The notes: generated from the sequence alone by a model not told the origin. Counted from the first letter of the stretch, positions 7,337 to 31,888 are shown. The stretch: 64,000 nt of DNA from Antedon mediterranea (GCF_964355755.1 NC_092676.1:7107888-7171887), one strand, 5' to 3'. Numbers and translations: made by a program.

Positions 7337-10300
7337 ATGTGGAATTTTTTAAAGAAAAAAGGTATGTACAATTTTGTTATTGTATGTTTATATTAGTATT
7401 GTATAGGTTAGTCGACCTAACATTGAAACATAGCATTATCTGCAAAAATAATAATGCGATTGGCTTCCATACTTAAAGAAGAAATTTAAAATTACGGAAA
7501 AAATTGCTAAATGTTATGATGGCTATTCTATCAAAAAGATTTTTGTATAAACACAAATATTTGTATTTTTCAGAACAACAGACAGACGGTAGGAGGAGAA
7601 GAGAAGAAAATAGGGTTTGTTTTAGAATCAACTTAAAACTAAAAAATGATAGTTAAATGTAAACAATTTGTAATAAGATCGTTTCATTGATTTTGTTATG
7701 GTTTATGTTTTTTTGTATAAGTCTCTGTAATGGATTACTTGATATAAAAAACCTAATGCGTCAATTGTATAATTGTATGGGATTTTCCATGTTTTGTAGG
7801 AGAATTGTTCATGTGTATTTTTAACGCATTGATGTATGATTGATTTATGTTGTATTTATTGTTAGGGTGTACAAAGTCCTGCGGTAAGGTCGACACAGAA
7901 AAACCAACGTGAAATAAGAAAACAACAAAGAAAACTGGTAAGTAGTATTTTATGATGACTATTTTCCATTACTAGTAAATTCAGTCAGTTCCAACACAGT
8001 TCTAACGAAATCCGACATGAAATGTTGCTTTAAACAATGTTTATCAATTGTGTCACGTCAGTAGTTTGTTTATTTGAAACATGTAACAGAGTTTTTGTAA
8101 ACAAAACTATTTTGCAGAAAAGAGAGAAACAGAGAGCAGAAAAAAGAGAAAATAGAAAGGTTGGTTACGTTTTTATTACGTAGAACTCGGAATTTGATAA
8201 TAACGCTCCATGAAATGTGTTATGGTTTAGGCATAAGCCTATGTGTTGTTTTTTGTTTTGCAAATGAAGTATTTGTGTGTTGCCTAACAATGTCGAACAT
8301 CTTAATTATCAGGTACAGAGAGACCTTAAACGTGAAATAAGGAAGCTTGAAAGAGAAGAAAGAAAAATCGTAAGTAATTCACACAGCTCCGCACCAAAGC
8401 CAATAACCACCCTTCAAACCCCTTCCTCCTCAGCTCTAACGGAACTCAACATTAATACATTGCTTGTAGATTTAATGTATCATGTGTCTATAATCTGTGT
8501 CTATTTGAAAAAATATAATTTTGTGTGTAGGCTTTTTAAAAGAGAAAAATGTAAAACTAAAATATTTGTATTTTACAGGAAAAAGAAATGCGGAGATCGG
8601 ATCGAAGAAACTATACAAAGGTTTGTTTCGTTAATCAACTAACTCAAAATAAATAGCTACATTCTGCAATTTATTTTTGTTGTACAAAGTCAACCATCCG
8701 TTATCAGTTGAATTCTTGTGAATAAATTTTCCAATCGGAGTATATTTATATTTTAAATTTTCCATTTCTGATTTAAAATTAATATTTTGATGAGATCTAA
8801 CAGTCCCAAACTAGGTTAAAGGATGATTTTCCAGTTCAGTAATATTGCCCTGTGTTCCGAACATTTAATGATGCGTGTCTCGTCAATAGGTTCTTGACGT
8901 AAATCAATATTTTGTAGAGGGGTTTTCCATGTTTATTTTTGGACCATCGATTTACTAATTGTTATGGTTAGAAGTGCCTTTATAGTCGTATTGTTCTGTC
9001 ATACTGGTAAGCATTTAATAGATAAATAATGCGTACAGTTTGTCTAATAAGTAGAAGAAACTTTAAAAAATGGCGTTCTGCAAGAAAGCGTTTGATCTTT
9101 TTTTCTTTTATTTATAAAAACAATCTCGCCAGTCAATATAAATAAATAAAATAAGTGGCATAAGGATAACTATTTATAGAGATACAGAAAAACTAAAGCT
9201 ACAGCGATAATGGATAGAAGGAAATGTTGACGCCACGTATTATGAGCTGTATTATAGGCTATTGAGAAGGAATTATATCAGAATAGGAAAATCAGCGTCT
9301 TGTATGATCTCACACCACAGAGCTTATACTGTAGACGACCGACCTTGATTGTAGACGTCTGTCACCATTACCCCTATTCCAAAATGTTGTGAATATTTCA
9401 AAAGATATTAAACCCAATGTTAGAGTATGAGTAGACCTAATTGTGTCATATTATTACTGAAGTCTCTATTTGACAAAAAAAAATCAGATGGAACGGTTAC
9501 TGAGTTTTAGCGCGACCAGCTGATAATCAATGATCAATCAGTCTTGAATGAATTCTTTATAACATAAATAATTTAAAATATTTTAATTTCAGACAAGTGC
9601 AACTTTACAACAACATCTTGTAAATTTGCTGAAAGTAAAATCAATATGTAATGCAGTGAGAGCACAGGCAAAGGTGAGTTTTATTTTTCTCTGGAAATGA
9701 TAATTGATTATTGTTGTTATACAAATTAGATATAGTTGATGCAGAGTAAACATTTTCCAGAGACTATAACCGCCTATGCTGATTTTGGTTGAAATAGTTT
9801 AGATTTCAAAACTACTTTGCTCTGTACAGTAGGCCTAAGTATTATTATAGTTTTGCGAAAATTATCAACCGGGCGTTACCAAAGTATTGAACCGACTGCA
9901 AGAAAATACTGTAAATTCACTCATCGCCGTATCCCCACCTCTTCTCTACATTGCTCTTTTTACTAAACTATTATTTTACAGGAAAACGAAAAACGGAGAG
10001 CGACAAGAAGAGGGGATAGGCCTCCTACACAGGTTTGTTCTGTGGATTATTACTGTAACTGAAAACTTTAAAAATGTGATACATTTTTTCGATCCAGAGC
10101 ATTAATATTGTTTTTGTTTTGTTGTAAATATGACTTATTTGTTTTGTTGTTGCTTAATGTCAAACATCTTAATTATCAGGTACCGTGACTTGGGGTTTTC
10201 CATGTGTATTTTTGCAACCATTGATGATTCATTGTTGGTTTAGAAGTGCCTAGTCGTGAATCATTCTTTCATATGTATTCTTTGTCTAAAAGTAGAAACC

Positions 10301-11436
10301 TTTGTGTTCTGCTAGATAACTAATATCTCACCTTCTGACGTCAGTTATGAAAAACTCACTATTTTTTTCACGTAATTTTGAATACAATTACTATTAAATA
10401 ATCATTTCAAAACAAATTTGCATAAAATAATCTAACATGATAGTTTTGTAAAATTATAAACTGGGCGTTACCAAAGTTTGAACCGACTGTGAGGAAATTC
10501 CAAAAACAGTTAACTACACGCAGATGATAACATTATTATTATTATTATATGTCAATTAACTTTGGATTATATTTAAATTTCAGCCTACAGAATCACTTGT
10601 CACATTATTGAGAAACGCATCTGAGGTAATTTAAAAACATAATATCATCATCAAATTTCTACTCTAAATCCATCAAATCTAGTCTTTTAAATATCTTACC
10701 ATTTTTTATAAAGCCGAAACAGTATATAATACCGGCTATTGAACTTGCTGCTCCGGACTGGAATTATACAATAGTATGAAAACTAGACCTTCCATTTAGA
10801 TACAGTACACTTGGCATACAAAGTGTATTCATATAGTTGTGTTACTATATTCCCTTTCTGCTTTTAGGTAATGGGTGCAATGCATAAGAAGATGCCACCT
10901 GAACAGTTGGCCAACATCATACAGGAGTTTCAGACAGAGTTCGAAAGAATCACCGAGGCACAACAATTAGGTATGTTTAATTATAATCCTGATGCTATGG
11001 TTTTATTACAGCATCGTACAGGTTAAAGCATTCATTGCATGATCAATATTCGAACTGAAGTAAATTAAAGCGACCAATATGAATTGACACGACGGGCACG
11101 AGGACTAATGGAGCGGCTGATCCAGGATGTTAAATAAGAAGAGAGGAAAAGGGCCTAAACATGATAAATAATGAATTAAATAAAGTGTTCAATTAACTCT
11201 ATCAATGTCCTATTTTAGCTTTGTAATTTCAAAATCTGAAAATGTACATTGCTTTAGGGGTCACACAATTTACGTGAATTGGAATTTGTTAGACACTAAC
11301 ACTTTTTTTTAATTAATTAATCTCATGGATTTTCTTAACTTCAATTAATTGTATTAATTTCCACATAATTTTTTTTTAAAGTCATGGTTCATTCTTAGAA
11401 GAACTTCTAGAGTCTGGAGATAAGGAGGAATGGTAA
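7337..11436 (+). CDS. Divergent CHMP2B paralogue A (about 197 aa; multiplied N-terminal exons; lacks helix 5 and MIM1)
   Basis: Exons 7337-7361 MWNFLKKK, 7574-7614 EQQTDGRRRREENR, 7866-7937 GVQSPAVRSTQKNQREIRKQQRKL, 8118-8159 KREKQRAEKRENRK, 8313-8369 VQRDLKREIRKLEREERKI, 8579-8620 EKEMRRSDRRNYTK, 9593-9673 TSATLQQHLVNLLKVKSICNAVRAQAK, 9982-10032 ENEKRRATRRGDRPPTQ, 10584-10625 PTESLVTLLRNASE, 10868-10970 VMGAMHKKMPPEQLANIIQEFQTEFERITEAQQL, 11399-11436 EELLESGDKEEW*. An alternative acceptor at 11382 gives VMVHS*. All introns are GT-AG and in frame; exons correspond to those of the CHMP2B at 27845-31888. Confidence 0.72.
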
Positions 11437-11519
11437 TTCAAGTTTCGGAACTGCTGGTAGCAATCAGAAGAAATTTAATATTATTAAATTCGATCGTCAT
11501 GCTTTATCGTGCAGCTAAT

Positions 11520-11790
11520 TATCATTTAATTAATTAATAAGTTAAAGGTGTTTTATATAAATTTTACTAAAAATGAGTATTTGAATTAAATATAATAAAT
11601 TAGGGGTGTTTTATATAATTCAGTAAAAATAAGCCTTTTAATTAATCATAAAAATTTAGGGGTGTTATATATTAAATCTAATAAATGTGGGATGTTCTAT
11701 ATAATTTCACTAAAAATGAATATTTTAATTAAATATAATGAGTTAGGTTTTTTATATAATTTCACAAACAGTGAGTATTTTAATAATATG
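11520..11790. repeat. Degenerate AT-rich minisatellite (about 55-bp unit)
   Basis: About five repeats of ggtgttttatataatttcactaaaaatgagtattttaattaaatataat. Confidence 0.6.
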
Positions 11791-12606
11791 CCTTTTTTAA
11801 CAGTTTATTTAACCATGTATTTATTTATGGTATTTAGTTATGGTATTTATTTATTCACACAATTATAAAGAATACAAGTCAAGGCCTACAAGTAAATGGT
11901 GTGTGAGGAAGACACGTCACATGGCCAGATGGCTTTAGGCTTGGTCCTCAATAAATGATATATAATATTTTGTTGAAAAGAGTTTAGCAAAGTAAATAAA
12001 GTAAATATTAAAATTGATGCAGTCTCTATATAGATGTACATTTTTTTGTAAGGGTTTGTATTTCAATTTCAATTTAATTTATTTCCACAATATTATAACA
12101 TACATACAGGATAATAACAGCAAGGAAGTAATCATGTGGGGGGAGGATCATATAAGTCAGAAAGACTTTAAGTTTGACCCACCCAAGGATATAACATTAA
12201 ATACGAATACACGAAAAAGAAAAAAATATACACATATTAACTAATAATAAATATAAGGTTCTTTAATCTAAATAATTTCCAATAAGAATTCGATTGTATA
12301 ATGTAGTTATAGCAACTAGTCAATACGATAAAAATAGACGTCCAGTAGCGATATTGATTAATACAGTTTTAACAAAAGGCATGCGTCTGATGGACGAGAA
12401 CTATAAGATGAATCATCAGTGCATTGTAGATCACATTCACACATTCTAAAAATAGTAATTACTATAAATACATTTATGTCGTAACACATAGCGTCACTAT
12501 TACGTCACAAACTCATTCAATTGTTATAATAAATAACAGTGTATGTCTAGCTTACATTCTATATCTCACAGTTTTTGCTGAACGTTTTCGGTCTAGATAA
12601 TTCAAA

Positions 12607-15521
12607 ATGAGTGGACGAAATAAAGGTTTGTAAAATCATTGCATTTATTGTAGGTTTCATCATAACTAGATTACCCCACTGTCACTATCATTTATAGAGA
12701 TATCTAACCAAGGTATAGGACACAATTCGCTTTAGTTTAAAAACGCTGGACACAGACATAACCATTAAGGCCAAAACAAAAAGTTCAGATAGAATAGTAA
12801 ATATATTTAATGGAAACATGTCTTGAAAAGATAAGATAAATCATATTTAATACATTTTTAAATACTTAAATTTGTTGAATTAAAAATACGAATTAGGTAT
12901 AATACTGATGAACTTCTAAAACACATAGTCGCAATTGAACCAAGCTTATTTATTCATTCCACATCACATAAGCTTATGCCATGTCTGATGAATATAATAT
13001 CAGCAACAAAAATAAATAGTTATATGAGTCTTAATTTAAATTTTCGGATATTCTGACAGAAATGCGAAAAAATGGCAAAGCACTAAACAAAACTCATAGA
13101 GAAATGGAACATGAACGCGAAAAACTTGAAAAAGAAGAACACAATTTAGTAAGTCAGTGTCAAGTTATTTCATCATCCTCCTTAAAACAACATAGGCCTA
13201 AAGGATTGCTTTCTTTTAAAATGTGTAAATTTATACTGTTTTTATTTTAAGGAATTGGCAATACAAAGAGCAGCAAAAAAAGGAGACAAACAGGTTTGTT
13301 TTGTTATCTGCATTAAACGTAATGATTTTTATTTACATTTATATATTTTTAAGTCCAGTATTGTTGCTTAAACTACTTAATTATAGGATGCAAGATTTCT
13401 CAATATGTACTTACTTCTATAATCGATTTTAAAATCTGTAGAATAGATGTTTTGGATTTCCCATGTGTTTATTTTTAGAACCACGTCGATGATGGCACGT
13501 TATATTTTTTTACTTACTTACATTTTGATCATTCATCCGTACTGCAACAAATAAACTTCTTTTAACTTGTTAAAAGCAATGACCTCATAAACAGTGACAA
13601 AGTATTATATGAATAATAACTCTAAGTGTTCCCTCGCCATTCAACTATTTTGTAAAGAAACAAAAGTCTTTTCATATTACGTGTTTAGTAACTGTAATTC
13701 TACCCTAACAATGCATAGACTAGCCTGCCGACTGATATCGTGAATGAATATTTGTAATTTCAGACATGTACAATTTTAGCAAAACAACTTGTAAATCTAA
13801 GAAAAACAAAAACAAGATCTTATGGAGCATCAGCAAAGGTATCAGCGGTGAAAACACAGGCTAAGGTGTGTTTCTTTTCTTGAGTTGCTGTTTTCTCATG
13901 GCATGATGATTAGTTATTTTACATTACCGCACTATTAGGATTTTGTTATTCGATTTGACTTTTAGAGTGAACTAGGAAACAAGGGGAAGTATAGTATAGT
14001 AACACGTAACAAACAAACATATACTATAGTACCGAGTAAAACTAGCATGTCTACGATTATCTAACTTTGCGCCTTTGTTTTACATTTCAGACAATGCAAT
14101 CTACAAAGACACTGGCCACAGCAATGGGAAGCAAAACTAAGGTACAGTATTACATTATACATTCATCATATTTGTTTATAGTAATAAGGTGTGTAATGTT
14201 TTCTAAAAACTGGAAACGCAAACTAAGTTATCAATGCAAACAAGACAATGTTGTTCAATTGCTTTGATACAAATAAAGGATATAAACACAACTCAATGGT
14301 CATTTTCCATTTTCATCTAACCTTATAAATTCTGGAAATTATAACAAAATCTGATTTAATATTAATGTTTGCCATAATTTAAGGGGAAATCTCACCTGTT
14401 GTTGGTAACTACAACGTTAACTTTGGAGTGGAGCTGTGGCTTGGTGGTTATGATGCTTGGCTACCAATCTAAGGGTCCTGGGTTCAAGTCCTGTCATATG
14501 TCAGGGTTTTTTTCTCATGACAATTTACAACTCCACTCCCAAAGACTTAATAATAAGTCTTTGTCTATGTAGAGCATCTTGTGTATATGTTTGTCTTATA
14601 TGTTCTAGTGCAGTATATGGAGAGCCATCTCGATAGTGCTTTGCACTCATGGCAATCCTCAGGGTGCTGCACCGCTGTGTTGTCATGTATGTTTGCCTGA
14701 AAATTAAATAAAATAAAATAAAATAAAATAAAATAAAATAAACTGAAGCCTGTCTTGCTAACAAGATTTACCAAGATAATGAACAAATATCCATTATAAG
14801 TAGGAGTAGGCAATAATAGACTTAAATAAATTAAATAAATCACAAAATATTGTAACATTTAAAACACACTCTCTCAATTAGTAAAGTGTATTAAGGAGTT
14901 GGTCATGATTATTTGTTTTGTTTTAAGGGAATGGTGGCCATGAATAAGCAAATGTCAACTGAAAAGGTAGACCAGATAACGCAGAAATATGGAAGCGAAT
15001 CTGCCAAGTCGGATAGGAAACAAGAATCAAGTATGTTTAATTGTATTTTACCACTATTACTATGGGTATGGTTTGAATACATTCATTTGAAAGGAAATTT
15101 TTCATTAAAAAAAAATTGAAATAGTAGAAGTGGAAGTCAAACTGTAAAGCATGAATCAGGGAGTAATCCTGATGTGAGGCATCCAGTTACTTTTATCCAA
15201 CTGTTATGATCGATGATAATAACAGAAATGATTCATATAATAGGTGCAGGGCATTTTTTATATTTAGGCCAATTGCCAAAGATAAAGATAAGCGAATTCA
15301 TTCACTATATTTCTTAAAGGTGCCAATCCTTTTCACAAGACAAATTAGCCATAACTCAGGTGTATAGCAACTTTACTATAGACAGTAAATATTTTAAATA
15401 ATTGTATTTACCTAATGTTGTTTTTTAAGTGGATGATACTTTAGAAGATCTTCTTACCGAGTCTGGAGACGAAGAAGAGGAAACGAGAGCAATCGTAAGC
15501 AAAGCATTAAAAGACCTTTGA
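12607..15521 (+). CDS. CHMP2B paralogue B (165 aa; lacks the terminal MIM1 exon)
   Basis: Exons 12607-12625 MSGRNK, 13060-13148 EMRKNGKALNKTHREMEHEREKLEKEEHNL, 13252-13293 ELAIQRAAKKGDKQ, 13764-13865 TCTILAKQLVNLRKTKTRSYGASAKVSAVKTQAK, 14091-14141 TMQSTKTLATAMGSKTK, 14928-15030 GMVAMNKQMSTEKVDQITQKYGSESAKSDRKQES, 15430-15521 MDDTLEDLLTESGDEEEETRAIVSKALKDL*. Exon phases match the parent and the frame is open (498 nt). Confidence 0.85.
14430..14742 (+). mobile_element. tRNA-derived SINE
   Basis: tRNA-like head with A-box tggcttggtgg and B-box ggttcaagtcc, a unique body and an (AAAAT)n tail. An inverted body fragment occurs at about 45508-45594. Confidence 0.75.
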
Positions 15522-16464
15522 GCAGCATTGTAGTACTACTGTAGCAATCGTACAAACAAACATTAATTTATCGTGGATTTTTATTTAGTTATGTTTTGTT
15601 TTAACATTAGGTCTACTGCTTTTGTTAAAATTACTCTTTTATTTTTGTTTTTATATAAGTAAAATAATAATTTTGTTGGATTTTTTCTACAGAAGTGAAT
15701 AACTTTATTGAAACTGCAAAAATCGTTTATCAAAAGTCTGATTATTAATCTTCATTTTTCATGTATTTGGGGGACAATACATCTTTAACGATAAAGTTAT
15801 AGTTTAAAAACTAAATTCTGTCTTTAATAAAACAACAAGAGATCGAGAACATAACAAAAATAGGTCGAGTATAAAGATAAATTTACGTATAAAAACTCAG
15901 CAATATTACTTATACTTATATTAATATAAAAGTTAAATGATATAAAGACTCAATCGAATTTTCTTTATTGTTTTGTTGGGGAACAATTCATGGCTATTTG
16001 TTGCTGGGGAATTAATAAATGTAATGAATATCATGTACAATAGGCATTATGGTGATCTAACCGTGTGACATGCAGTATTCGTATTACGCTCGAGAAATAC
16101 TGTTCCTAAGGTCCTTAGGCTTTTTCAATCCAAAATTGAATTATCATCATGATGCAAGACTCGGCAATAGTTTTGCCTCGGAATCGTTTAGAATAATATG
16201 TATAGGCCTATCTTTTGGATTTTCCATACCAGATCTATTTTTATCGATGATACGGTACAATATTTGTTTACATTTACATATCAAAACATAAAATTAATGT
16301 ATGTTTAGACGTTCTAAAAATAGCACACCAAAAACTACACACATTTACATATTATTGATTTATTTCTTCACATACTATATAAGTAAGTACGGTATGTCAC
16401 AACCTCACTCAGTGTTTGGTGAAAGTTGGATATACGAGGTATTCCTTGGTCTAGACAATTCACC

Positions 16465-19400
16465 ATGTGGAAATTTCTAAAAAAATTTAGACGAAAAAAG
16501 GGTATGTACATTTTTATTTATTGTATGTTTTTTTGTGGTAAGTTACAACCGTTATTTTATAGACCTGGCAGTTAAACACAGTATTTTGCTGATATTTTTA
16601 GAGATTTTATGAAGAAACATGATAATGACAACAGTAACTGCAGACCCAGTACTTAAACACTAATAGAATTATTTTCTAATACGTATAAAGAAAGAAATTA
16701 AAATATAGAACTAGTAGCAATTCATTCACCGTCATAAATGTAAAGTTTTTTCGAATATTGTCTTCATTGGCAAGTATGATAGAATAGAGATATAATTAAA
16801 ATACACAGGACTAACAGTATCTAACAACTTGTGTGTTGCTATAGATATTCATTTATCTAAATAGTTTTATATTTGAAAGAGACAAATTTAACACAAAAAA
16901 AAACATACCGGTATTTTTCAGGAAAAGAAAAAACTGTGAGAAGAAAAAAAGGAGATGATCAGGTTTGTTTCGTTGATTCAGTTCAAAATTCAAAACTTAA
17001 TAATACCCTTGTATAAATGTTATACAATTAATTATATAATCCGTTTATTTGTGATGTGTGTATGACTTATTTATTTTGGTATGATTATTGATTAACGGCC
17101 TATAATTATCATAATGATATGATGTGTTATTTAGGCAATTCTTTTAGGTTCTTGTGAATCAATTGTGCAATCTACGAATATTTTGGAATTTCCATTATGA
17201 TTATTTTAATAATAGATAATACATAAAATCGTTTAAATTATCTAACGATGGCCTTAAGGGTCTTTCACACCTGTTCCGTCTCCACTCGGCTATGCACCAA
17301 TCGATATGCGCTTAGCCGCGTGAAAACGAAACATTGACGTTCGATTGAATTTTCCGGCGCCGGACCGAAACCGTGCCGGAACAGGTGTGAAAGAGCCTTT
17401 AAGTGTATGATATAATGATGCAGGACAAATAATGTAAGACTTTTAATGGGTTTTGTATTTAAATAAATTTTACAAGCTGTTATACTTTTACTGGGATTTC
17501 CATGTGTAATTTTTTGGCGGATTTCCCACATTTAGTTTAACCACCCATTGATCTTATATTGTTCTGCATTGTTTACTTTTATAGTCTAAAGGTGTACAGA
17601 ATTCTGCGACAAGTGCTTTGGCGACACAAAGAAAATTTAAACGCGGAAAAAGAAAAGAACAACACACCGTAAGTAGCATTGTCCTGATAACTATTTTCTA
17701 TAAATGAAAATTCTTTCAGCAGTTTCCCTTCCCAACTGAGTTTCGAACCTAATAAGAAAAAGTTTTTGCTTTTAAAATTGATTTGTTTATCATGTGTATT
17801 AATATTTTAATACACATTGGTATTTTGTAGGAAAAGCAAAGAGCAGAAATAGATAAAAAGGCTTGTTTTGTTGATTTTTACTGTTTTAACTTAAATTAAT
17901 AACATTTATCAATTTTATATCTACTGTATCAATTGTTTGTTGTTAACGATGTCAATTATCAGTATGATATGATGATGATAAGGACCACATTATAGTTCTG
18001 GCGAATCAATTATGCAATAGAGAACATTTATATTTTGGATTTTACATTACTAATTAATAACAATTTGCTTTCCTTTGGTTTCTCTTAAATGACATTTCAA
18101 GACAACTTAATGATGCATAAGAGATGATGCAAGACTTTTTGGGGTTTTTTTTTCAATTTATTTTTATTGGGATTTTCCATCATGTATATTTTGAACCCAT
18201 TAATGATACAATAATTGGTTGACATTTTCTTTATTATCCATTATCTACGTTAGTTATCCGATTCTACGATGAACTCAATAGAGAGAGGCCTTGAACGTGA
18301 CAGAAGAGAACTTAAAAGAGACGAACAAAAAATCGTAAGTTGTATGCCTAAGACTAAAACGGAATGTCATTGTTTTTTTTTTTAAATACGTACAAAAATA
18401 ATATTTTGCTTTACAACTTGATTTGTAACATAAATGTATATGTATATTTTTAAAAGACAGATTTAACACATTTATGTGAAAAAAACTACTTGTGTTTTTC
18501 AGGAAAATGATATAAAGAAAGCTGAAAAGCGAGGGGATAAACAGGTTTGTTCCTTTGATTATTTACCGAATAAATTTACAACTTGATAATACATTTTATA
18601 AATTATTTTAATAGCTCGCCAGTCAATAATTGCAAATGGAAGTTGTGACGTAGTCCGTAGCGTTGGTAATTCAGTTATTGAGGCTTATTTACATACAAAC
18701 ATATAGAAATACATACAATATTTGATGCAAAGATAACTCTGACAAAAAAAAAATTGATGTGCCCATTTATGGACATGATTATGTTATATCACCACCATAT
18801 TTAGGCACATCACAGTTTTTGTTGTTGTCTAGTTTGATAGTGTTGAGAACCTTACATCACGGTACAAAACTAAATGTATTTTAAGTGAACAACAAATATT
18901 GGTATTGAGTTGTACAGTATATTCCTATTTTTCCTGTTTATTTGTATTTTTTGTGAATTACAATGCTAAATTTAATAGATGAAATTATTCAATCTAATGA
19001 AGCATAGTACGTGTTTTAGGCCTACTGCAGTTATCTTAGTAGTCCTCTTCCAGAAGAAATAGATGGAACTAACATTAGTTAGATTGGCCCTTTTTACACC
19101 GACATGTCGTGTTCGGATTCCTTTTCGCATCTGATTTAGTGACCCTAGTATTATCCTCGGGTACTCAATTCCGGATCAAACACCTTTGCCTCCATTTCAT
19201 AATTACGTATGGTACTTCTCTTTAGATTAAATGAGCCTTTTCAATTTCAGACATGCAAATCTTTACAAAAACATCAACAAGTTTTGAGAACAGCAAACGC
19301 GAACTCGCATAAAACATCAGCAAATGTGTCAGCAGTAAGAACGCAAGCTAAGGTGAGTTGTTTTCTCTGGCAATGATGATCGATTATTTTAGGCCTACTA

Positions 19401-20300
19401 TTTCCTCTCACATGTAAAATTATTATGGCGCCTGTTGTTGAACGTACAATTCAGAATGATATTGTGGATACTATTATAGAATGCCCGTTTCTTGAAAATT
19501 ATTATAGGCCTATTCCCTCCAGAGTAAACCATTGGCTTTGATTGCAAAACATTGCTAAATATTTTGATTGCGGCATTTAATGCTGAGACGTATTTTAAAT
19601 TTCAGACAATGCAATCTACAAAGACAGTTGTCACAGCAATGGAAAACACTACTAAGGTATTTTAATTTTTATCATCCATTAATATTATTAGCAGGTATAA
19701 TTATTCATTCGTGTGTTTTTTTTATAAACGACAATTAGCTCCCGAGGAGAATTAAAATGGTTGAAAATTAATTGTCAGTATTGAATTGTCCAAAATTAAA
19801 TAATTATTATCGTTTCTAGGCAATAAAAGCAATGAATAAACAGATGCCGTGTAAGCAGATAGCCAATCAAATGCATGCGTTTGAGAGAGAAAGCAACGCA
19901 ATGACCGAGGCACAAGAATTAAGTATGTGTATTATATAATTATATTTTCAACTGGTGCTGTGGTGGTGTTATTACAGCACATGTTAAAGCATTACATGAT
20001 TGGTCAATTCACCACCTGAAGTCTACCATTTAGCCATAAGTTTGGCTTGCAGAAAACCGTTACAACCCATGATTTTACTTAAGTCAAGATAGTAAAAAGT
20101 GCCTAAGTGAAAAGATAGTATCTTTTTAGCTTAAGCACTTTTTACTATCTCGACTTAACTCATGGATAACCATCCCCATAATATCCTATAATTTTTGCCA
20201 TATTTCGAATTATTCATGATTTCTGCCTCACTTAATTAATTAATTGTATGTTTCTCCTTTTTTTTAAGTGGATCTTCTAGAATCTGGAGATGTCGAGTAA
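16465..20300 (+). CDS. Divergent CHMP2B paralogue C (about 200 aa; multiplied N-terminal exons; lacks helix 5 and MIM1)
   Basis: Exons 16465-16501 MWKFLKKFRRKK, 16922-16962 GKEKTVRRKKGDDQ, 17585-17668 SKGVQNSATSALATQRKFKRGKRKEQHT, 17831-17860 EKQRAEIDKK (GC donor, may be skipped in frame), 18254-18334 LSDSTMNSIERGLERDRRELKRDEQKI, 18503-18544 ENDIKKAEKRGDKQ, 19251-19352 TCKSLQKHQQVLRTANANSHKTSANVSAVRTQAK, 19606-19656 TMQSTKTVVTAMENTTK, 19820-19922 AIKAMNKQMPCKQIANQMHAFERESNAMTEAQEL, 20269-20300 MDLLESGDVE*. Confidence 0.78.
17257..17398. mobile_element. PIF/Harbinger-like MITE
   Basis: TIRs agggtctttcacacctgttcc / ggaacaggtgtgaaagagcct, flanked by TTA on both sides. Confidence 0.7.
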
Positions 20301-20551
20301 TGGTGATTCAAGTATTGGTTAACTTGGTCATTCAGAAGAAGTTTATTATTTTTACCGTGTAGATACAAATATTTAATTATAATAAGTAGGGTTTAAACGA
20401 GTCGAAATGAGACTTCTACTATAGGCCTAGGTTTATTAAAACAGGGTAGATAGTTAAAAGTTAAAGTTCACACAACATAAAACAAGTTAAAAGTAAAACG
20501 TAGTGTGAGCAGATTATGTGAGATTAAGTTAACAGGGCTTTTGTTCTTTAA

Positions 20552-20806
20552 CCCTTTCAAGACGTGGCCCGTATCCCATACAGGGTAATTTACTGTACCA
20601 GGACGAGAGGCCTGTATATTTACGGGTTGACTTTTTGGGGTCACTGAATTGCACTTTATGAGCATTTGACCTACGCAATTTTTTAGAAGGCCAAAACATT
20701 CCCATAGCAATAAAACCAACAATTGCAGAAAGTTACATAAAAAATGTATTTTGGATTTTCCTAAGCTTTTTAAAAATACCTTCTTGGGGTTCGCGTATTC
20801 AAAGGG
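20552..20806. mobile_element. piggyBac-like MITE
   Basis: TTAA flanks (20548-20551, 20807-20810) and CCC...GGG termini with a 13-bp imperfect TIR (ccctttcaagacg vs ccctttgaatacg). Confidence 0.6.
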
Positions 20807-21289
20807 TTAAAAAGATAATAGGCCTATAATATCTTGTTACAAAATTATGAAGGGTAGGACTAAGGTAAAAAACAAATATGTTTCCTTATTTACAAAATTA
20901 GAGAATACATAATGGTACATCTTTTGCTAGTAGTACACAACAAATAATAATGTTTGCTTTGAGGTTATTTGTAGGCTAAAATTATAGTAAAATAAACATT
21001 AGTATAATACTGGTAACTGGTTGTAAAGTTAAACATAAAAGACACTTTCCCTGAAATTGTTGATGTTTTGTAAAAATAATGCATATACTGTATATTACTT
21101 TAAAAAAGTTGTATAGGCCTAGTTGGTAAACAGCGGTAACATACGAACATCGTACGCTTCAGATCTTTACTGCTTAAAGATGGAAGAAAATTATTGTAAT
21201 AGGCCAGTATAGTATTTAATGAAAAGCAGCTTAAAATAGATGAAAAAAACATAAAGGGAAAAGTACATTCATAAATGCATTTTGTAAAT

Positions 21290-24200: not shown

Positions 24201-24729
24201 AACAATTTAGAGTGAAGTGTAAATTTATAATAATGAGTGTACATATAAATTATTAATACAGTAATAGTTAGATAAAAACTCTAGATGATTGGTATAGACA
24301 TAGGATACTTTATTTGTCAAAAATGTAATATTTTTGAAAAGATAAGATGTTAAAATACATTTAAAATTCTTGTAAGAAAATATTTAAAATACATTAAATT
24401 AAATATGAAAATTGCAATATTCAAAATACTGTGGATATATCGCATTAATAATATAAAATAATTTAAAATGCGTTTGACTTTGATAACATTTTTGGTTCAA
24501 AACATCCTTTATTAAAAAAAAATTGTGAACTTACTGAATTTGTTATTTAACAGCTCCTGCACTTCTCGTCTGAGCTTTTTCTTCTTATTTACTTGTTTTG
24601 CATTTGGACCTGTATGGATTAAAATCAGATTGTAAGCATAAATATAAATCATGTTTTTACAGTATTGTAATATAATGTTGTGTTGAGGTACTAATGAAGA
24701 CTCTTACTCGCTTGACTGTCGTAACACAT
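21290..24729 (-). CDS. GTF2I(TFII-I)-like repeat + C-terminal chromodomain protein (5' end uncertain)
   Basis: Minus-strand phase-1 exon chain: 24729-24708 MCYDSQA (tentative start), 24609-24535 SPNAKQVNKKKKLRREVQELLNNKF, 24178-24020 KQASGKDRVPYKEVMNGKWRVCGLDPISFKPIGRYTYQELESIIEKSNHLKFE (GC donor gcaagt), 22321-22292 ATENETVIAD, 22164-22135 ATENETVITD, 21992-21945 AEIEVTIRPHEVLIDF, 21610-21539 EKNTDLANICSEIGHTSKKTELKE, 21423-21290 GFYAFEKILKKKKKKGQFMYQVKWVGFKKPTWEPEANVPEHLRI*. The last exon is a clear chromodomain signature; the I-repeat was recognised by eye. Confidence 0.75.
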
Positions 24730-26038
24730 ATATTGTTTATTCAGTATAATATTTCAGTACAATAATGATTCGGTACAATATACTATTAGGATAAGGATAC
24801 AGAGGATCAGTGATGCTGTCGGTGAGGTGTGAAGTGTGTAGGTCTGCTTCTGGAGAAGTGGCTGTAAGGTGTAGATGTTCTTCTGAAGAAGTGGCTGTAA
24901 GGTGTGTGCTCCGTGAAGTGGCTGTAAGGTGTGTCTGGGCTCTTCTGAAACTTGAGGGTTTATTGCTTTGGTTCATTTACATATGTCACTACGTAATCTT
25001 AGAGGTTACTGATTGGTCCTAAGTTGGTCCATGGGTGTTTAAGTGGGAGTGATTGATCTTATCTGGGGAGGTTACAATGATGAATTGGCCCTGTCGAATC
25101 TCTGCTTAAAAACTGTCAATATCTAATTGTTTTACGATGGGAACAGTCACGAAATTAAGCTAAGTGTTTTCTTTAGGGATTCTATTATAAACTAAATGGT
25201 CATTAAAACATATGGACAAACTCTCCTCTGGACTTTCTGGGTCAAGTTTGTGAACTTATTTGAATTCCGATACAAAGGTCAATTTCTTAAATATAAAAGT
25301 ATATCGTTATATTACATCCCTCTGTTTCCCTTTTTTTTTCTTCTAATCTATTTTAATATAATGTAATATAATGTTGCGTTGTTGAAGTACTAATGAAGAC
25401 TCTCACTCGCTTGACTGTCGTAACACATATATTGTTTATTCAGTATAATACTTCAGTACAATAATGATTCGGTACAATATACTACAGTATTAGGATAAGG
25501 ATACAGAGGATCAGTGATGCTGTCGGTGAGGTGTGAAGTGTGTAGGTGTGCTTCTGGAGAAGTGGCTGTGAGGTGTAGATGTTCTTCTGAAGAAAAGGCT
25601 GTGAGGTGTAGATGTTCCGTGAAGTGGCTGTAAGGTGTGTGCTCCATGAAGTGGCTGTAAGGTGTGTCTGGGCTCTTCTGAAACTTGAGGGTATATTGGC
25701 TTCGGTTCATTTGCATATGTCACTACGTAATCTGTGAGGGTAACGATTGGTCCTAAGCTGATCCAGGGGTGTTTAAGTGGGAGTGATTGATCTTATCTGG
25801 GGAGGTTACAATGATGAATTGGCCCTGTCGAATTTCTGCTAAATTCTGTCAATATCTAATTGTTTTACGATGGGAACAGTCACAAAGTTATTCTTTAGGC
25901 ATTCGATTATAAACTAAATGGTCATTAAAACATCTGGACAAACTCTCCTCTGGACTTTCTGGGTCAAGTTTGTGAACCTATTTGAATTCTGATACAAAGG
26001 TCAATTTCTTAAATATAAAAGTATATCGTTATATTACA
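24665..26038. repeat. Tandem duplication of a unit of about 650-680 bp with internal gaagtggctgtaaggtgt repeats
   Basis: About 24665-25316 and 25361-26038 are near-identical; they differ in the copy number of an internal 21-30 bp repeat. Confidence 0.9.
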
Positions 26039-26886: not shown

Positions 26887-27089
26887 TAAGTTCTAAAATG
26901 TAAATGATACTTGGACTACTGTGTTTAACACCATTCATTAATATATGATATAATATAAGTAAGTGTCAGATCAGTGTGTGTGTGTGTGTGTGTTCCGTTG
27001 TAAATCTGCTACAATGCTTACTTTTGTCAAATTTATTGTGAAGAGGATGAAAGAGGTAATTTCAATTAAAATAATATTCAATTTTAAAG

Positions 27090-27275
27090 TCCTTATATAA
27101 AACTATATTTAAAATGTTGTAAAATGGTGCAGTCAATTCTAAATAAGTTCAACTTGCATTGAAAGAAGTTACACATTTTCAATTTATTGTATATAAACTT
27201 GATTTTTGCATCAAATTTAAGTTTGTTATCAATTTGATCATCTAAATGCTTGTATGTTTTAACTTCTGATAACCT
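27090..27275 (-). mobile_element. Degenerate LINE reverse-transcriptase C-terminal fragment
   Basis: Minus frame reads EVKTYKHLDDQIDNKLKFDAKIKFIYNKLKMCNFFQCKLNLFRIDCTILQHF, resembling the YKYLG..IDNKL.F region of CR1/L2/Rex-group RTs. Confidence 0.55.
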
Positions 27276-27639
27276 TTAATAACAATTTGGGGAAGCAAGT
27301 ACTTATATTAAAAAGCCAAGCAATGCACATTGCAAGAAAATTAATTTGATTAACCTTCTTTTCAATTTCCTTGGCTTTTCGTGCTATTGCAATTTTATTC
27401 TGGCCTCTGTCATTTGCGATGGTGTTGTTGGCAGTGGCAAAGCCAGTCTTGCCCGTTCTTCATAACTGGCAGATTCATTGTACAAAAGACAATTTATTTT
27501 TAATTATTATTATTATTATATTTTTTTCATTGTTGTTTATTTTATTTCCAATAAAATGTAATACTGTAAAATATAGTTTGGACTTTTCATTTATTTTTAA
27601 TAGTGTCACGCAACATAATTTCTGAAAACTAAAAAAAAA

Positions 27640-27844
27640 AAAGTTTTAAACTCTATAATTCTAAAAATAACCGTATGACTAATTGTTATTGATTGATGAT
27701 CGATTCCCGATGCGCGCGTCTGATTGATCACTCATGTTACGTCATACAAGACGTCACATGAAACAGACTCATCATCATTCAAAGATCGGTCGGTCATAAT
27801 ATATCCCATCCATATCATTTTATTTATGTTGAAAGTTTCACACC
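27640..27844. promoter_or_regulatory. Putative promoter of CHMP2B, possibly bidirectional with the GTF2I-chromo gene
   Basis: CpG-containing patch immediately 5' of the ATG with gcgcgcg, a CRE-like TTACGTCA (27737-27744) and GTCACATGA (M-box/CLEAR-like E-box, about 27753-27761). Confidence 0.45.
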
Positions 27845-30800
27845 ATGAATGTATTTAGGAAACCAAATGAAAAAGGTTTGTTGAACGTTCTATTATTAAA
27901 ACTACTATTTATGATTTTCTATAGGCTACTAAAACTATTACAATAGTCTAATAGAGTTAGACTAGGCTATACTATTGTATTAATAAATAGTGCTAGGCCG
28001 CCTAGTGTAGCTAGGCTGAGTGTAGCAGCAGCAGTGGTTGACCGGCTAGGCTAGTCTGGCCCTAGCTAGCGGGTATCCTAGCTAGGCCTAGTCTAGCTAG
28101 GCCGAGATTAGCTAGACCCAGAGTAGCCGGTCAACCACAGCTGCTGCTGCTGCTACACTCAGCACAGCTGAGCAGCTACGTTTTTCCAGCAGCCAGTAGA
28201 GGCCGTGAGCCTAGACTTGACTGATACAGACAGTACTGTAGTTTAGTAGGCCCCTTTTGTCTTTCTTTCTCTAACTCGTAGCTGTAGTTATTCTTGCTAG
28301 GTCGCTTAATTAAATCATAAACTTAATTTATCCATCCCCTGGTCCTGCGTGTGCTGACTAAACTATAAAAGTATGATAATAATTAAATTATGCCTGGCCT
28401 ACCAGCCACAAGATGTTTTTTAATCATACTGTCAAATTATAGAAACAGTGCTCATATTCGGAACATGATCTTATAATCGCGTCGAGCATAGCTCATCGGC
28501 GAAGTTTCCATATTTTTAGTTGTATGAAAAATTCTTTGGCAGGATTCGAACCAGAATGTATCTGGTGGTTGAAAATCTGTCATAATACCAATATGGTCGC
28601 AGGTTTGAATCCCGCCAAAGACATTTTTTCATACTAAAAATATGGAACTTTCGCCGATGAGCTATGCTCGACGCGATTATAAGATAAGATTCTATAATTT
28701 AACAATATGATTTATATATAAATTACACAGTGCTATGCAACACAATTGATTTATATACAAGATGTTTTACTTTTAGTCTCATCATTGCCTCATCCTGCAT
28801 GTTAATGATTGGTGGTTCTCTTTTTACTCCCTATATATAGGCTAGCCTAATCATTTATCTACATACTAAATTAAGCCCTTGTCCAGTCCTAATAAATGTC
28901 AGTATTTATTAAACAGTATTTCTTAATACTTCAATTCAACAGAAATTATGCGAAAAAATGACAAAGCACTACGAAAAACACAAAGGGACCTGGAACGTGA
29001 CCGAGGAAAACTTGAAAGAGAAGAAAAAAAATTAGTAAGTACTCCATTATCATGATTGCTATTTGAAATTCATTCACACACATTCTCCGATGTCCCTCCT
29101 TCTTCCTTAAAACATAAACAATCTCTTGCTTTTACAAATTTTGTAAATTAATTAAAAAAACTTTTTTTTTGATTAGGAACTGGAAATACAAAGAGCAGCA
29201 AAAAGAGGAGACAAACAGGTTTGTTCCTTCTTTAGTTATCAAGATAAAATAAATGAAAACCTTGTTATAATTGCACCAAATTCACTATCAAACTTTATGA
29301 GACAAAAATATCACTACCATATCTGGGCATATCACTACCATATTTGGGCACATCATACTTTTTTTGTCAAACTAGTTTGATAGTGTAGAGACAGAGCTTA
29401 AAGCAATATATTTCGTCCCTGCCGCTATACGATTATATAATGAATGATAATATCATTCATTATATAATCGTATAATCGTATTTTATGCGCTAGTTTTATT
29501 TTTTGTAGTATTTTAAATCGACTTTTTAGGATTTTATATGTATATTTTGTATGGCTTTTTTTATTGTATTTTATATTTTATGTACTGTATCCATTTTATA
29601 TTTGTATGTACTGTACTTTTGAAAAGGCCAACAGAGTTTCCCCATGGGGATAATAAAGTTTTAATTGAATTGAATTGAATATTTATTTTAACTTTATCAT
29701 TGATTCTCTAAATTTCAGACATGTACAATTTTAGCAAAACAACTTGTAAATATGAGGAAAGCAAAAACAAGATCTTACGGAGCATCAGCAAAGGTATCAG
29801 CGGTAAAAACACAGGCTAAGGTGAGTTTTTCTTCTGCTAAATTTGATTTCCCCTTGACAATATTTGTTTAAATTGTTTAGTTAGAATATTTTATTATGAC
29901 AACTTAACTTTGTTTTACATTTCAGACAATGCAATCTACAAAGACACTTGCCACAGCAATGGGAAACACAACTAAGGTAAAGAATTAATTTTTGAGATAG
30001 TAAAAAGTGCTTAAAGTGAAAAAGACTAGGATAAGAAGATAAATATTTGCTTAGGTTATTTTAGAAAAAAAAAAGTTAAGATAATTGTCTTTGATAAATC
30101 CAGCCACACGTGTTCTCTTGAAATCTTTTGTGGTGATAGAAACAGAAGTTAATATTTCAGATAATGGAGCCAATAAGTACAGATTTATGAATTTTATTAT
30201 TATTTTATTTATTTATACTGGCCTCTTCAGTAAAAGCCTGACCTCCCAGATGGCCCAGTTATGATCAGTGGCTGTGATGGATAGAAGTATATATAGTTAA
30301 GTTATTATAGAGAAGTTAATTATCATGATTACTTTTGTTTTATTTTAGGCAATGGGTGCAATGAATAAACAAATATCACCTCAACAGATAGCCCAGACAA
30401 TGCAGAACTTTGAGAAAGAGTCAACCAAGATGGCTATGACAGAGGAATTAAGTATGTACAATTGTACTGGTGTTGCCAGCCGTGGTCTTATTTGCATACG
30501 TAACAAGTAACAAACTCTTGTCTTGTTCGGGTTACTATGTTGCGTTGCGGATTGAAAAAAAATAAATATCAGTAAAATTATCTTTTTTCACAATGATCAC
30601 CTATAATTCAAGTTTATTTATTTATTCTTTGGGTGATCTCTTCAGTCAAAAACTATTCTCCCAGAGGGCTGTATGATGAGTAAGTTGTGTGAACTAGGAT
30701 GTTGAAAGATGTACTAGGCTGATGAGCCAGATATGTACACTGGACCTTATACAAGAAGACTCTTTCTACCACCAGAACCATGTAAAGAGTGATGCAGGCC

Positions 30801-31888
30801 TTGTCTTTTGAAAATTGCACTCCTCAATCAGGGATGCTCTAGATGTGCTGTATTTTGGTGTGTTGAAGTTTACCAAATTTAAGCATGTTGTAAATCACAC
30901 TCCTCAAGGGAAGTTTAGGAGTGTGTTAAGTGGGTGATCGCACTTGCTCGCCTTAAAAGACAAGGCCTGTGATGTTATGGCTACGTACAGTATTATGGTT
31001 CCACTGTCTTACTGCTTGGCCACTCACTCATTTTTTTTAAAACATAAATAACAACCCGACATAAAAGATGTATTTATTTTTGTTTTTTAAGTGGATGATA
31101 CTTTAGAAGATCTTCTTACGGAATCTGGAGATGAGGAAGAACAGGAGGCAATTGTAAATAGAGTTTTGGATGAAATTGGCATTGAAGTTTCTGGCAAGGT
31201 AGGATTGAAAGTGTTGATCAAGTTCAAATCATAAATAGTCACTTTTCTATTTGCTGTATTCATCAATCACATTTCTTAAATGAGATATTTCTCATTTTTT
31301 GAGTCAATACATATTTAAGGATTTTACTTAAGTGGTATGCACATAGATGTGATAGATAGATGATAAATGTTTGAATACTGACACTCTTTGACGGCCTCAA
31401 TGTTTTTGAATTTTTTATTTTAAATACTGTATTAAATACAAAATTTGGAACCGATGTATTGTCCACCTGAAAAAACTGTAAAATAACCTATCGTAATTTG
31501 ACTTCACCCGATTTTATTAATCTTAATTTTTTATGTTTTTGGTGGACAGTACATCAAAAAATTTGGATTTAGGAAAAGTTTTCGTTTTTAGGGCATCTGA
31601 TGTCAGTTGACTGTATTCATACTACTGTACAAAATATTACAAGACGTAATAATCAATGTATAGTAAAACTCAAATGGCTTCGTCATTGCCTGAATATCTG
31701 TCATTAATTCTGTTAGAATTCTATTTTTTATCGATTTTAATTAATTAAAAATAATTTAATTTTATGTTTTCTTGCAGCTTGCAGAGGCACCATCAGCTCA
31801 TAAAGGATCATTGGCCGATAGTAATGCAGCCAAGGATGCAGAATTAGAGGCAAAGCTAGCAAAATTATTACAAGTGAATGATGATTAG
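27845..31888 (+). CDS. CHMP2B: Charged multivesicular body protein 2b (ESCRT-III), intact parental copy, 212 aa
   Basis: Exons 27845-27875, 28943-29034, 29177-29218, 29719-29820, 29926-29976, 30349-30451, 31092-31198, 31778-31888. Translation: MNVFRKPNEKEIMRKNDKALRKTQRDLERDRGKLEREEKKLELEIQRAAKRGDKQTCTILAKQLVNMRKAKTRSYGASAKVSAVKTQAKTMQSTKTLATAMGNTTKAMGAMNKQISPQQIAQTMQNFEKESTKMAMTEELMDDTLEDLLTESGDEEEQEAIVNRVLDEIGIEVSGKLAEAPSAHKGSLADSNAAKDAELEAKLAKLLQVNDD*. This is a typical CHMP2B with the MIM1-type ELEAKLAKL. Confidence 0.95.
28468..28685. mobile_element. Fold-back element with long inverted arms (CHMP2B intron 1)
   Basis: atcttataatcgcgtcgagcatagctcatcggcgaa...tttggcaggattcgaacc pairs with ggtttgaatcccgccaaag...ttcgccgatgagctatgctcgacgcgattataagat; arms are about 85 bp. 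Confidence 0.8.

Follow-up and report, generated by a model that had tools for sequence, protein, structure and literature searches.

What are the three shortened CHMP2B-like genes that stand beside an intact CHMP2B in the crinoid Antedon mediterranea, and what could they do in the cell? In the window (the whole 64 kb stretch of DNA analysed), three intron-containing CHMP2B copies (hereafter A, B and C) lie upstream of an intact eight-exon CHMP2B (hereafter the parent). The preliminary description had proposed this arrangement, and it holds: the exon chains read from the window translate into proteins letter-identical to the RefSeq models.

7337–11398, plus strand: copy A, 11 coding exons, 190 aa; identical to XP_071956287.1; 8 of 10 predicted GT..AG joints in run X1; Snf7 28.3 bits
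12607–15521, plus strand: copy B, 7 coding exons, 165 aa; identical to XP_071955326.1; Snf7 97.2 bits
16465–20300, plus strand: copy C, 9 coding exons, 190 aa; identical to XP_071955325.1; Snf7 68.8 bits
27845–31888, plus strand: parent CHMP2B, 8 exons, 212 aa; identical to XP_071955324.1; Snf7 145.3 bits
31835–31867, plus strand: parent MIM1 (the VPS4-binding motif), residues 196–206, in exon 8; pattern match

Copy A had been drawn to 11436; RefSeq and a joint in run X1 place its last acceptor at 11382 and its stop at 11396–11398, and 11436 is the stop belonging to another acceptor, use of which was not seen.

All four proteins score above the Pfam Snf7 (PF03357) cut-off of 27.3 bits. The parent shares 91% identity with Anneissia japonica CHMP2B, falls in the CHMP2B clade and carries the MIM1 leucines conserved across the family (L199, L203 and L206); its predicted structure, built from a five-row alignment, reached a pLDDT of 64 and was not used further. 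A quick tree of 152 rows unites A, B, C, the parent and Anneissia CHMP2B in a single clade (SH-aLRT 99), which sits inside the group with named CHMP2B proteins. A more careful 22-row tree draws a choanoflagellate protein into this clade, a warning of long-branch effects. Exon boundaries are common to copies and parent. By sequence comparison, the copies are descendants of CHMP2B rather than of CHMP2A or CHMP3, and they arose by tandem DNA duplication in an invertebrate. AU tests did not separate an earlier from a later origin of A and C relative to the Antedon–Anneissia split (p 0.39), and gave p 0.27 for A, B and C as one clade. No relative turned up in another species; the copies are known from one species. 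An assembly artefact or allelic duplication is excluded, because the copies are 35–70% identical to the parent and are covered by DNA contigs of another sample. Divergence is uneven: protein identity to the parent is 70% in B, 53% in C and 35% in A.

The copies lack exon 8 and MIM1, as had been described. Tblastn and blastn searches with exon 8 found no credible second copy of it in the window (next protein match, E 2.3). The MIM1 pattern matched none of five copy isoforms (A, B, C and the extra isoforms of B); the two matches among seven scanned proteins are both full-length crinoid CHMP2B. Applied to a set of 154 proteins, the scan left 91 without a match, many of them plainly full-length tails that it missed, so it cannot count truncated relatives. 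Splicing onto a distal MIM-bearing exon left no sign in the read contigs over the copies, and the last exons continue into untranslated sequence. Exon comparison also bears out that helix 5 is absent from A and C and that B retains a version of it (15489–15518), in altered form and in the 165-aa isoform only. RefSeq holds two more B isoforms (158 and 157 aa), which leave exon 7 before helix 5 and gain no MIM; an exon at 15693/15696, likewise without a MIM, likely supplies the ends of RefSeq isoforms X2 and X3. The new end of B was considered as MIM-like and rejected: it fails the MIM pattern and is helix 5 by DNA alignment.

15693–15698, plus strand: probable alternative terminal exon of B, with acceptors at 15693 and 15696, from protein ends; no read joint
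20301–21084, plus strand: 3′ untranslated region of C, from run X1 pieces 20269–20650 and 20628–21084

We then compared exon content and charge. A and C have 11 and nine coding exons instead of seven, owing to duplicated exon-2-like and exon-3-like units:

7574–8159, plus strand: duplicated exon-3-like, exon-2-like and exon-3-like units of A (7574–7614, 7866–7937 and 8118–8159), from exon alignments and profile matches
9982–10032, plus strand: additional exon-3-like exon of A, lying between exons 4 and 5; profile match E 1.1e-10, both joints in run X1
17831–17860, plus strand: exon-3-like unit of C with a GC donor, skipped by the RefSeq model; exon comparison and RefSeq

These duplications triple the basic residues before helix 1 (Lys + Arg before Arg25 number 8 in the parent, 6 in B, 21 in C and 23 in A), and the net charge is +25 in A and +21 in C versus +2 in the parent. 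The acidic helix-4/5 cluster is gone in A, cut in C and kept in B (Asp + Glu in the 34 positions from 137: parent 14, B 12, C 5, A 0). The pI of A and C is 10.2 and 11.0. The helix-5 docking residues follow the helix itself: Ala49 and Ala61 (91% and 98% conserved among 66 relatives) persist in B, which retains it, and have been replaced in A and C, from which it is gone. A putative N-terminal hydrophobic membrane anchor, judged by pattern, is present in A and C and absent from B, and the Trp/Phe/Leu N-terminus of A and C is stronger than that of the parent.

Each copy departs from the parent in its own way: (i) in A, the duplicated units (profile matches at 8108, E 5.5e-5, and, weakly, at 7555, E 0.21, and 7906, E 0.78) extend basic helix 1, and the proline-rich end of the inserted exon breaks helix 2; (ii) C keeps core exons 2–6 intact behind duplicated basic N-terminal exons (16922–16962 and 17585–17668), with three of the four helix-1 basic positions mapped from CHMP2A lost and Gln at 61, 64 and 65; and (iii) B has lost the conserved helix-4 residues Met124, Met134 and Met136, and its exons 3–5, which match the parent at 59 of 65 residues where exons 2 and 6 match it at 23 of 53, may have been maintained by gene conversion. 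The predicted structure of A is a helical hairpin protein (pLDDT 82, pTM 0.61) with helix 1 lengthened, helix 2 broken at residues 129–138 and further helices present; its top Foldseek fold matches are CHMP2A–CHMP3, but weak (best E 0.03). Given the helix-1 losses in C, the helix-4 losses in B and the broken helix 2 of A, co-assembly of the copies with ESCRT-III may have been lost.

None of the matching sequencing runs is recorded as RNA. Run X1 is RNA-like and run X3 DNA-like, and we took X1 as RNA because it holds GT..AG joints. The joints of A found in X1 do not occur in X3. Within the duplicated 5′ part of A, joints 7361>7574 and 7614>7866 were seen in X1, while 7937>8118 and 8159>8313 are not among the joints listed; exon 8118–8159 has no cover among the X1 matches listed, which is evidence neither way. 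In X1, a contig piece starts at the B acceptor 15430, with 161 letters before it, and another at the C acceptor 20269, with 156 letters beyond it; exon 1 of C is joined to the next exon in a loose contig end. In one mapping with 106 joint rows, the 15 listed all come from repeats and cross-mapping, which leaves B and C with boundary evidence only. The proposed splicing is supported at most joints of A, and in B and C at the exon-7 boundaries. A run with no known challenge contains each of the three copies, which speaks against the inducible reading given below. Runs X2 and X4 show low depth across the 5′ half of A; X3 does not, and the signal was dropped.

The three copies together retain 24 GT–AG introns and 545 codons free of stops and frameshifts; every exon length change preserves the frame, and the new exons are spliced in frame. 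The statement that all splice sites are kept is accurate for these introns and fails for the C unit at 17831–17860. In neutral simulations (4000 runs for each copy), the probability of keeping an open frame and all splice sites was at most 0.00025 per copy at 0.15 substitutions per site, and the estimated branch lengths are about 0.14–0.45. The frames and splice sites of the copies outlast neutral decay. Amino-acid constraint is weak: pooled dN/dS is 0.61, which differs from 1 (2ΔL 4.76, p about 0.03), whereas about 75% of sites fit a dN/dS of 1 and no single copy branch differs from it. Positive selection was not detected in the branch test of A (dN/dS 2.36, not different from 1; 2ΔL 1.7) or in the site model (2ΔL 0.64). 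In A, 18 of the 20 core hydrophobic positions are retained, where 14.1 would be expected (p 0.035), and the substitutions it carries are conservative (p 0.0015); B (p 0.84) and C (p 0.54) do not pass the core test. By identity, family-conserved positions are not better kept than variable ones in any copy (B 31/44 vs 51/74, C 28/44 vs 39/74, A 17/41 vs 27/67; p 0.17–0.53). In other samples, five of seven exon variants are missense, and segregating frameshifts, named earlier as a sign of decay, are absent, as are stops, from the variant rows listed.

We also searched the introns for regulatory motifs. Motif scans gave the following kB-like sites:

7779–7788, plus strand: kB-like decamer, intron of A
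8919–8928, plus strand: kB-like decamer, intron of A
10192–10201, plus strand: kB-like decamer, intron of A
13454–13462, minus strand: kB-like 9-mer, intron 3 of B
17493–17527, no strand assigned: two kB-like 9-mers, intron of C
18169–18178, plus strand: kB-like decamer, intron of C

Four strict decamers lie in introns of A and C versus 0.17 expected over the three copies, a count to be read with the fact that the sites were spotted by eye before the pattern was chosen; the 27–33 kb region of the parent has none, and the DOP1 region has three further strict matches. The sites of the copies descend from one intron element, and identity is 0.81 within the motif versus 0.68 in its flanks, a comparison biased by anchoring on the motif and thus not a test. 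They also fit NFAT-type sites. These sites are a hint, from motifs, of inducible control. A STAT-like motif is not enriched in the copies, and an ISRE-like motif was discarded as unspecific, being in excess in every region except the first.

How might such proteins act? We tentatively favour, at somewhat less than even chance, the reading that the copies are inducible, VPS4-uncoupled brakes on ESCRT-III filaments that would become part of these filaments or coat them, slow their turnover and possibly serve in defence against enveloped-virus budding. Between filaments, acidic helices 4–5 lie opposite basic helix 1, and helix 5 docks in trans onto a hairpin tip; truncated CHMP3 needs its helix-1 basic cluster to act as a dominant negative (10.1101/2022.04.12.487901). 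Truncated CHMPs inhibit budding (PMC7618577). By analogy with human ESCRT-III structure, A and C would be permanently open without helix 5; their aromatic–basic N-terminus and enlarged basic helix 1 would attach to anionic membrane and to the acidic stripe that helices 4/5 form on an adjacent filament; and, offering no acidic stripe, helix 5 or MIM themselves, they would cap the filament laterally and leave VPS4 nothing to grip. The effect of B would be milder, with hairpin and helix 5 kept and anchor and MIM lost. Putative Rel/NF-kB (or NFAT-type) sites, which increased in number as the intron was duplicated, would keep expression to conditions of immune activity or stress and thereby hold toxicity down. 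A specifically antiviral role for the copies seems to us unlikely. We hold equally doubtful the fuller proposal that a crinoid independently evolved NF-kB-inducible, CHMP2B-derived ESCRT-III poisons that block budding of enveloped viruses or retroelements, exon duplication having multiplied both basic helix and kB site. The decoy or restriction idea put forward at the outset is partly supported: its premises hold (spliced genes, a lost VPS4-binding exon, frames beyond neutral expectation and tandem duplication in an invertebrate), and against the antiviral role itself stand undetected positive selection, weak constraint and occurrence in one species.

A rather improbable alternative takes the copies as relaxed duplicates. 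On this view, the gene was duplicated in part, without exon 8; drift, together with selection against co-assembly, made the resulting toxic truncated subunits harmless; and weak constraint keeps the frames open without any adaptive role for the copies. The predominance of sites at dN/dS 1, the lack of any deviating branch, the unfavoured conserved sites, the missense variants and the decayed exon of C all agree with this; the similarity of B exons 3–5 to the parent may reflect gene conversion, and the Lys/Arg richness of A and C follows from copying purine-rich exons. It is harder to square with introns and open codons that persist although B and parent introns no longer align, with length changes and new exons that are all in frame, and with the conservative changes of A.

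Alternatively, A and C could polymerise or bind alone as a VPS4-independent coat that stiffens, seals or marks anionic membranes (in wound repair, autotomy, regeneration or damaged phagosomes) and leaves the canonical pathway uninhibited, which we consider possible but doubtful. C-terminally cut human CHMP2B binds PI(4,5)P2 membranes alone and rigidifies them (PMC8033747), and loss of the acidic cluster parallels CHMP1A/B, coats of positively curved membranes (10.1101/2022.04.12.487901). The high net charge and hydrophobic N-terminus of A and C fit such a coat, and their altered interfaces speak against co-polymers with the parent; however, without a MIM such a coat has no known removal route, B lacks the anchor and helix 2 of A is broken. 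Much less probable still is a place for A and C outside the ESCRT pathway, with the long basic helix binding nucleic acid or entering the nucleus. Their pI values would suit this, and the Lys/Arg runs in the N-terminus of C are similar to a nuclear localisation signal. CHMP1B–IST1 filaments bind ssRNA and ssDNA, according to the titles of entries 8v2q and 6e8g. Yet the Trp/Phe/Leu N-terminus suits membrane, the hairpin core is kept and B is left unexplained.

Returning to the reading of the copies as brakes, the closest known system is retroCHMP3 of New World monkeys, lemurs and mice (10.1101/2020.08.30.273656, 10.1101/2021.04.27.441704), the sole natural truncated ESCRT-III inhibitor found in the literature searched and limited there to mammals and CHMP3. 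Both systems comprise an extra ESCRT-III gene beside an intact parent, C-terminally truncated to 140–190 aa with loss of VPS4 binding; in both, truncation recurred independently, the frame is kept beyond neutral expectation and core substitutions are many. By contrast, the copies (i) derive from CHMP2B, not CHMP3; (ii) have 6–10 introns each, are spliced and form a tandem array of three of DNA origin, unlike the intronless LINE-1 retrocopies; and (iii) show helix-1 exon amplification (A and C) in an echinoderm host. Mouse retroCHMP3 is interferon-inducible, and no truncated retrocopy of CHMP2A or CHMP4B turned up in a survey of primates and rodents (10.1101/2021.04.27.441704).

Canonical CHMP2B (Antedon XP_071955324.1, Anneissia XP_033095943.1) shares exon structure, Snf7 domain and clade with the copies, but MIM1 is in no copy, A lacks helix 5 and the acidic cluster, C mostly does, and B lacks the anchor; dN/dS is about 0.6 in the copies versus 0.1 in canonical CHMP2B. 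The FTD3 alleles CHMP2B-Intron5 and Q165X (PMC2865375) affect the same subunit, with a similar cut site (B has 165 aa) and the same lost VPS4-binding end, but are disease alleles with an intact core, whereas the copies are separate diverged genes coexisting with the parent. Engineered CHMP2B-ΔC (PMC8033747) is an open, membrane-binding truncated CHMP2B, as the copies are predicted to be; A and C depart from it in that their basic helix is duplicated and their acidic cluster lost.

If the proposed poisoning holds, these would be the first invertebrate, non-retrocopy, non-CHMP3 restriction factors of the ESCRT-III poison type, and, if the array is defensive, sabotage of one's own ESCRT-III would be a general defence route, open to other subunits. 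Whatever their role, the three natural variants dissect the subunit: B has no anchor or MIM and keeps helix 5, C has no helix 5, an intact core and an extra basic helix, and A has no acidic stripe and a broken helix 2. They test the model in which filaments pack by basic helix 1 against acidic helices 4–5, and they illustrate how CHMP2B truncation of the FTD3 kind can be tolerated. As short cDNAs, the three are suited to standard assays.

The plus strand carries a ZP-domain gene, three CHMP2B copies (A, B and C), the parent CHMP2B and a DOP1/Dopey gene, the last with a C1q-collagen gene nested within it on the opposite strand. Exon chains were assembled manually from a self-comparison of the window and a splice-site scan. 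Their translations match the Antedon mediterranea RefSeq models letter for letter (100%) for the copies and the parent, so these four genes are already annotated:

7337..11398 (+), copy A; XP_071956287.1, 190 aa, RefSeq label 'uncharacterized protein'
12607..15521 (+), copy B; XP_071955326.1, 165 aa, further isoforms of 158 and 157 aa
16465..20300 (+), copy C; XP_071955325.1, 190 aa, RefSeq label 'uncharacterized protein'
27845..31888 (+), parent CHMP2B; XP_071955324.1, 212 aa
320-6360 (+), multi-exon gene with ZP-N and ZP-C, ending ~1 kb upstream of A
about 40200-63500 (+), DOP1/Dopey gene (Dopey_N and DOP1 TPR domains), immediately 3' of the parent and also linked to endosomal trafficking
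54838-55662 (-), one-exon collagen and C1q gene, antisense inside a DOP1 intron

All four CHMP2B-like proteins exceed the Pfam Snf7 cut-off, A by a narrow margin. A quick tree built from 152 proteins places them in a single clade with Anneissia CHMP2B (SH-aLRT 99) amid named CHMP2B; inside it the pairs are A-C (97) and B-parent (88), and the same pairing is favoured by codon data (20 log units).

Our results reveal that the copies are real, spliced and retained. Five sequencing runs cover the stretch, none of them recorded as RNA. Nine joints are listed for A: eight are GT..AG in run X1, which we therefore treated as RNA, and the ninth is non-canonical and comes from the DNA-like run X3. Joints 7937>8118 and 8159>8313 are absent among those listed. 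The junctions predicted from the sequence are thus corroborated for 8 of the 10 A introns, while B and C have exon-boundary evidence, plus an exon-1 joint for C: an X1 piece starts exactly at the B exon-7 acceptor 15430 (161 further letters), another starts exactly at the C exon-7 acceptor 20269 with 156 further letters that fit exons 6 and 5, and C exon 1 is joined to the following exon in a loose end. This support comes from one run, X1, possibly overlapping the data behind the RefSeq models. The final exons of the copies extend beyond their stop codons in the run data.

The absence of exon 8, and with it of the VPS4-binding motif MIM1, from the copies holds: no credible second exon 8 was found within the 64-kb window, and the pattern that we take to represent MIM1 is confined to the two full-length crinoid proteins among seven scanned. 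B indeed retains a version of helix 5, as a helix-5-like stretch precedes its stop. A and C share an exon-7 deletion with neighbouring stop codons, whereas B stops at a different place, 3' of that stretch, which indicates at least two separate endings. The end of A, placed at 11436 in the preliminary description, is corrected to 11398 because acceptor 11382 is used instead.

Amplified front exons make these genes stranger than the preliminary description had seen. Both A and C contain extra exon-3-like and exon-2-like units upstream of the core, and in A exons 4 and 5 are separated by an additional exon-3-like exon. When four exon-3 copies were combined into a profile, it matched the remaining ones with E values of 1e-10 to 1e-3; the match to 7574-7614 was weak (E 0.21). 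Of the first exon-2-like units, that of A gave a weak match (E 0.78) and that of C none; both are recognized by alignment and a common donor context. The stretch 10109-10290 is a second copy of intron stretch 8244-8316 / 8919-9003, with an acceptor resembling that of exon 8313 and no matching exon, and is a decayed unit from this duplication.

B is patchy relative to the parent: its exons 3-5 share 59 of 65 residues with it, its exons 2 and 6 share 23 of 53, and synonymous change leans the same way (p 0.06), so that conversion of B exons 3-5 by the parent is possible. Exon 5 (19606-19656, 14091-14141 and 29926-29976) is ~90% alike across C, B and the parent, synonymous sites included (dS about 0.09), a closeness that the other C exons do not share; patchy gene conversion is a possible cause. 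The 5' untranslated stretch ahead of the start is common to A, B and C (7322-7336, 12592-12606 and 16450-16464) and unlike the parent's. With coding exons that are nearest the parent's, B is possibly a mosaic.

We then analysed selection on the copies. In neutral-substitution simulations (4000 each, ignoring indels and the choice of models for open frames), a copy retains its frame and every splice dinucleotide with a probability of <=0.00025 once substitutions have reached 0.15 per site; the copy branches are about 0.14-0.45 long, depending on the model, and B and parent introns can no longer be aligned. Seven exon variants read in other samples comprise five missense, two silent and no stop changes, after exclusion of five rows in B exon 4 that carried the parent's letters, and no coding-exon indel occurs among the rows shown (all for A in one set; 40 of 78 substitution and 12 of 25 indel rows in the other). 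At the near-invariant Arg68 position of A (window 9630), the reference and X3 have Leu and X1, X2 and X4 have Arg. A codon model of our own, applied to 118 codons from exons 2-6 without exon 1, exon 7 or the duplicated exons, gives a dN/dS of about 0.1 for the parent and 0.61 for the pooled copies, the latter differing from 1 (p about 0.03); single-branch values for A, B and C (2.36, 0.65 and 0.44; 2dL vs 1 = 1.7, 0.8 and 3.6) do not differ significantly. A site model found no positive selection (2dL 0.64) and placed about 75% of sites at 1, and identity at family-conserved positions is no better retained than elsewhere. Change is significantly conservative in A (18 of 20 core positions hydrophobic vs 14.1 expected, p 0.035; mean BLOSUM p 0.0015), but B and C fail the same test. 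The earlier claim of kept frames and splicing stands, while protein constraint is weak; a fair reading is that an open, spliced frame is under selection and most residues are free.

Net charge rises coherently across the copies (parent +2, B +8, C +21, A +25). Lys plus Arg N-terminal to the invariant Arg25 number 8 in the parent, 6 in B, 21 in C and 23 in A, and acidic residues of helices 4 and 5 number 14, 12, 5 and 0. Close to the hairpin tip, Ala49 and Ala61, which from CHMP3 work we take to dock helix 5, are substituted in A and C and retained in B, tracking helix 5 itself. A predicted A structure (71-row alignment, pLDDT 82, pTM 0.61) has a single helix 27-88, a helix 2 interrupted at 129-138 by the inserted exon, and two helices after; its best fold matches are CHMP2A-CHMP3 chains, weak at E 0.03, with none at 0.001. 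In the CHMP2A-CHMP3 polymer (10.1101/2022.04.12.487901), basic helix 1 lies opposite the acidic helices 4-5 of the neighbouring filament, the hairpin tip two subunits on is the helix 5 binding site, short hydrophobic motifs at the N-terminus point towards the membrane, and both polymer formation and dominant-negative action of cut CHMP3 require the helix-1 basic cluster. Four CHMP2A basic positions, mapped by alignment, are basic in A (4/4), B (3/4) and C (1/4), the added exons of C contributing other basic residues.

A and C could accordingly be pictured as open, membrane-avid subunits that would bind the acidic filament face and present none themselves, and all three copies would be unable to recruit VPS4. 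Truncated CHMPs are described as inhibiting budding and endosomal traffic (PMC7618577; PMC2865375), and we infer the function of the copies at every point. That they form an inducible ESCRT-III brake is a tentative reading, somewhat short of an even chance; that the brake is specifically antiviral is doubtful. Its working would resemble that of retroCHMP3, the truncated CHMP3 retrocopies of New World monkeys, lemurs and mice, although A, B and C are not members (different subunit, introns present, tandem origin); a primate and rodent survey reports no truncated CHMP2A or CHMP4B retrocopies (10.1101/2021.04.27.441704). Interface changes in the copies speak against co-assembly; partner binding is weakened in retroCHMP3 alongside loss of toxicity (10.1101/2020.08.30.273656), so such changes cut both ways. 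An independent membrane coat is unlikely, despite a report that cut CHMP2B by itself binds and stiffens PI(4,5)P2 membranes (PMC8033747); relaxed duplicates are equally unlikely, and nucleic-acid binding is quite improbable.

Induction is no more than hinted at by kB-like sites. GGGRNWYYCC, which we take to be kB, was one of seven patterns scanned, chosen after such sites had been noticed; it has 7 window matches vs 1.67 expected (7 attained by 1 of 100 shuffles), four in A/C introns, three in the DOP1 region and none in that of the parent. A further three sites, 9-mer variants, fall in B and C. The sites in the copies are non-independent, being part of one intron element duplicated along with exon-3 units; with each site left out in turn, its profile finds 4 of the 8 again (E <0.05), and it has no match in the parent. 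Sea-urchin immune responses are described as involving NF-kB (PMC5457136). A CRE-like octamer lies ~110 bp 5' of the start codon in the parent (27737) and B (12500) and 800 bp for A (6539); C has none upstream of its start.

For A and C, word searches gave relatives limited to their own locus and Anneissia CHMP2B. In a profile search across 1.84 billion representatives, B, C and A came out on top, and among the best 150 of 3353 matches no further protein fell in the crinoid clade (quick tree); few crinoid proteomes are apparently covered, so this absence shows little. Within the searchable literature the copies are undescribed: searches of the open literature, largely without subscription journals, gave no prior description of them, none of a truncated ESCRT-III paralogue from an invertebrate, and no match for ESCRT with crinoid.

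Between C and the parent lies a tandem duplication of ~680 bp (24655-25316 / 25351-26038; 88% identity, short internal repeats), and short, AT-rich tandem repeats of ~56 bp occur 3' of A (11549-11790). An element with inverted-repeat character, ~100-170 bp long and covered at great depth in the runs, is dispersed through the window in >10 copies, among them 18735-18850, 29308-29400, 32134-32250, 35243-35340, 38560-38727, 40984-41150 and 46757-46920.
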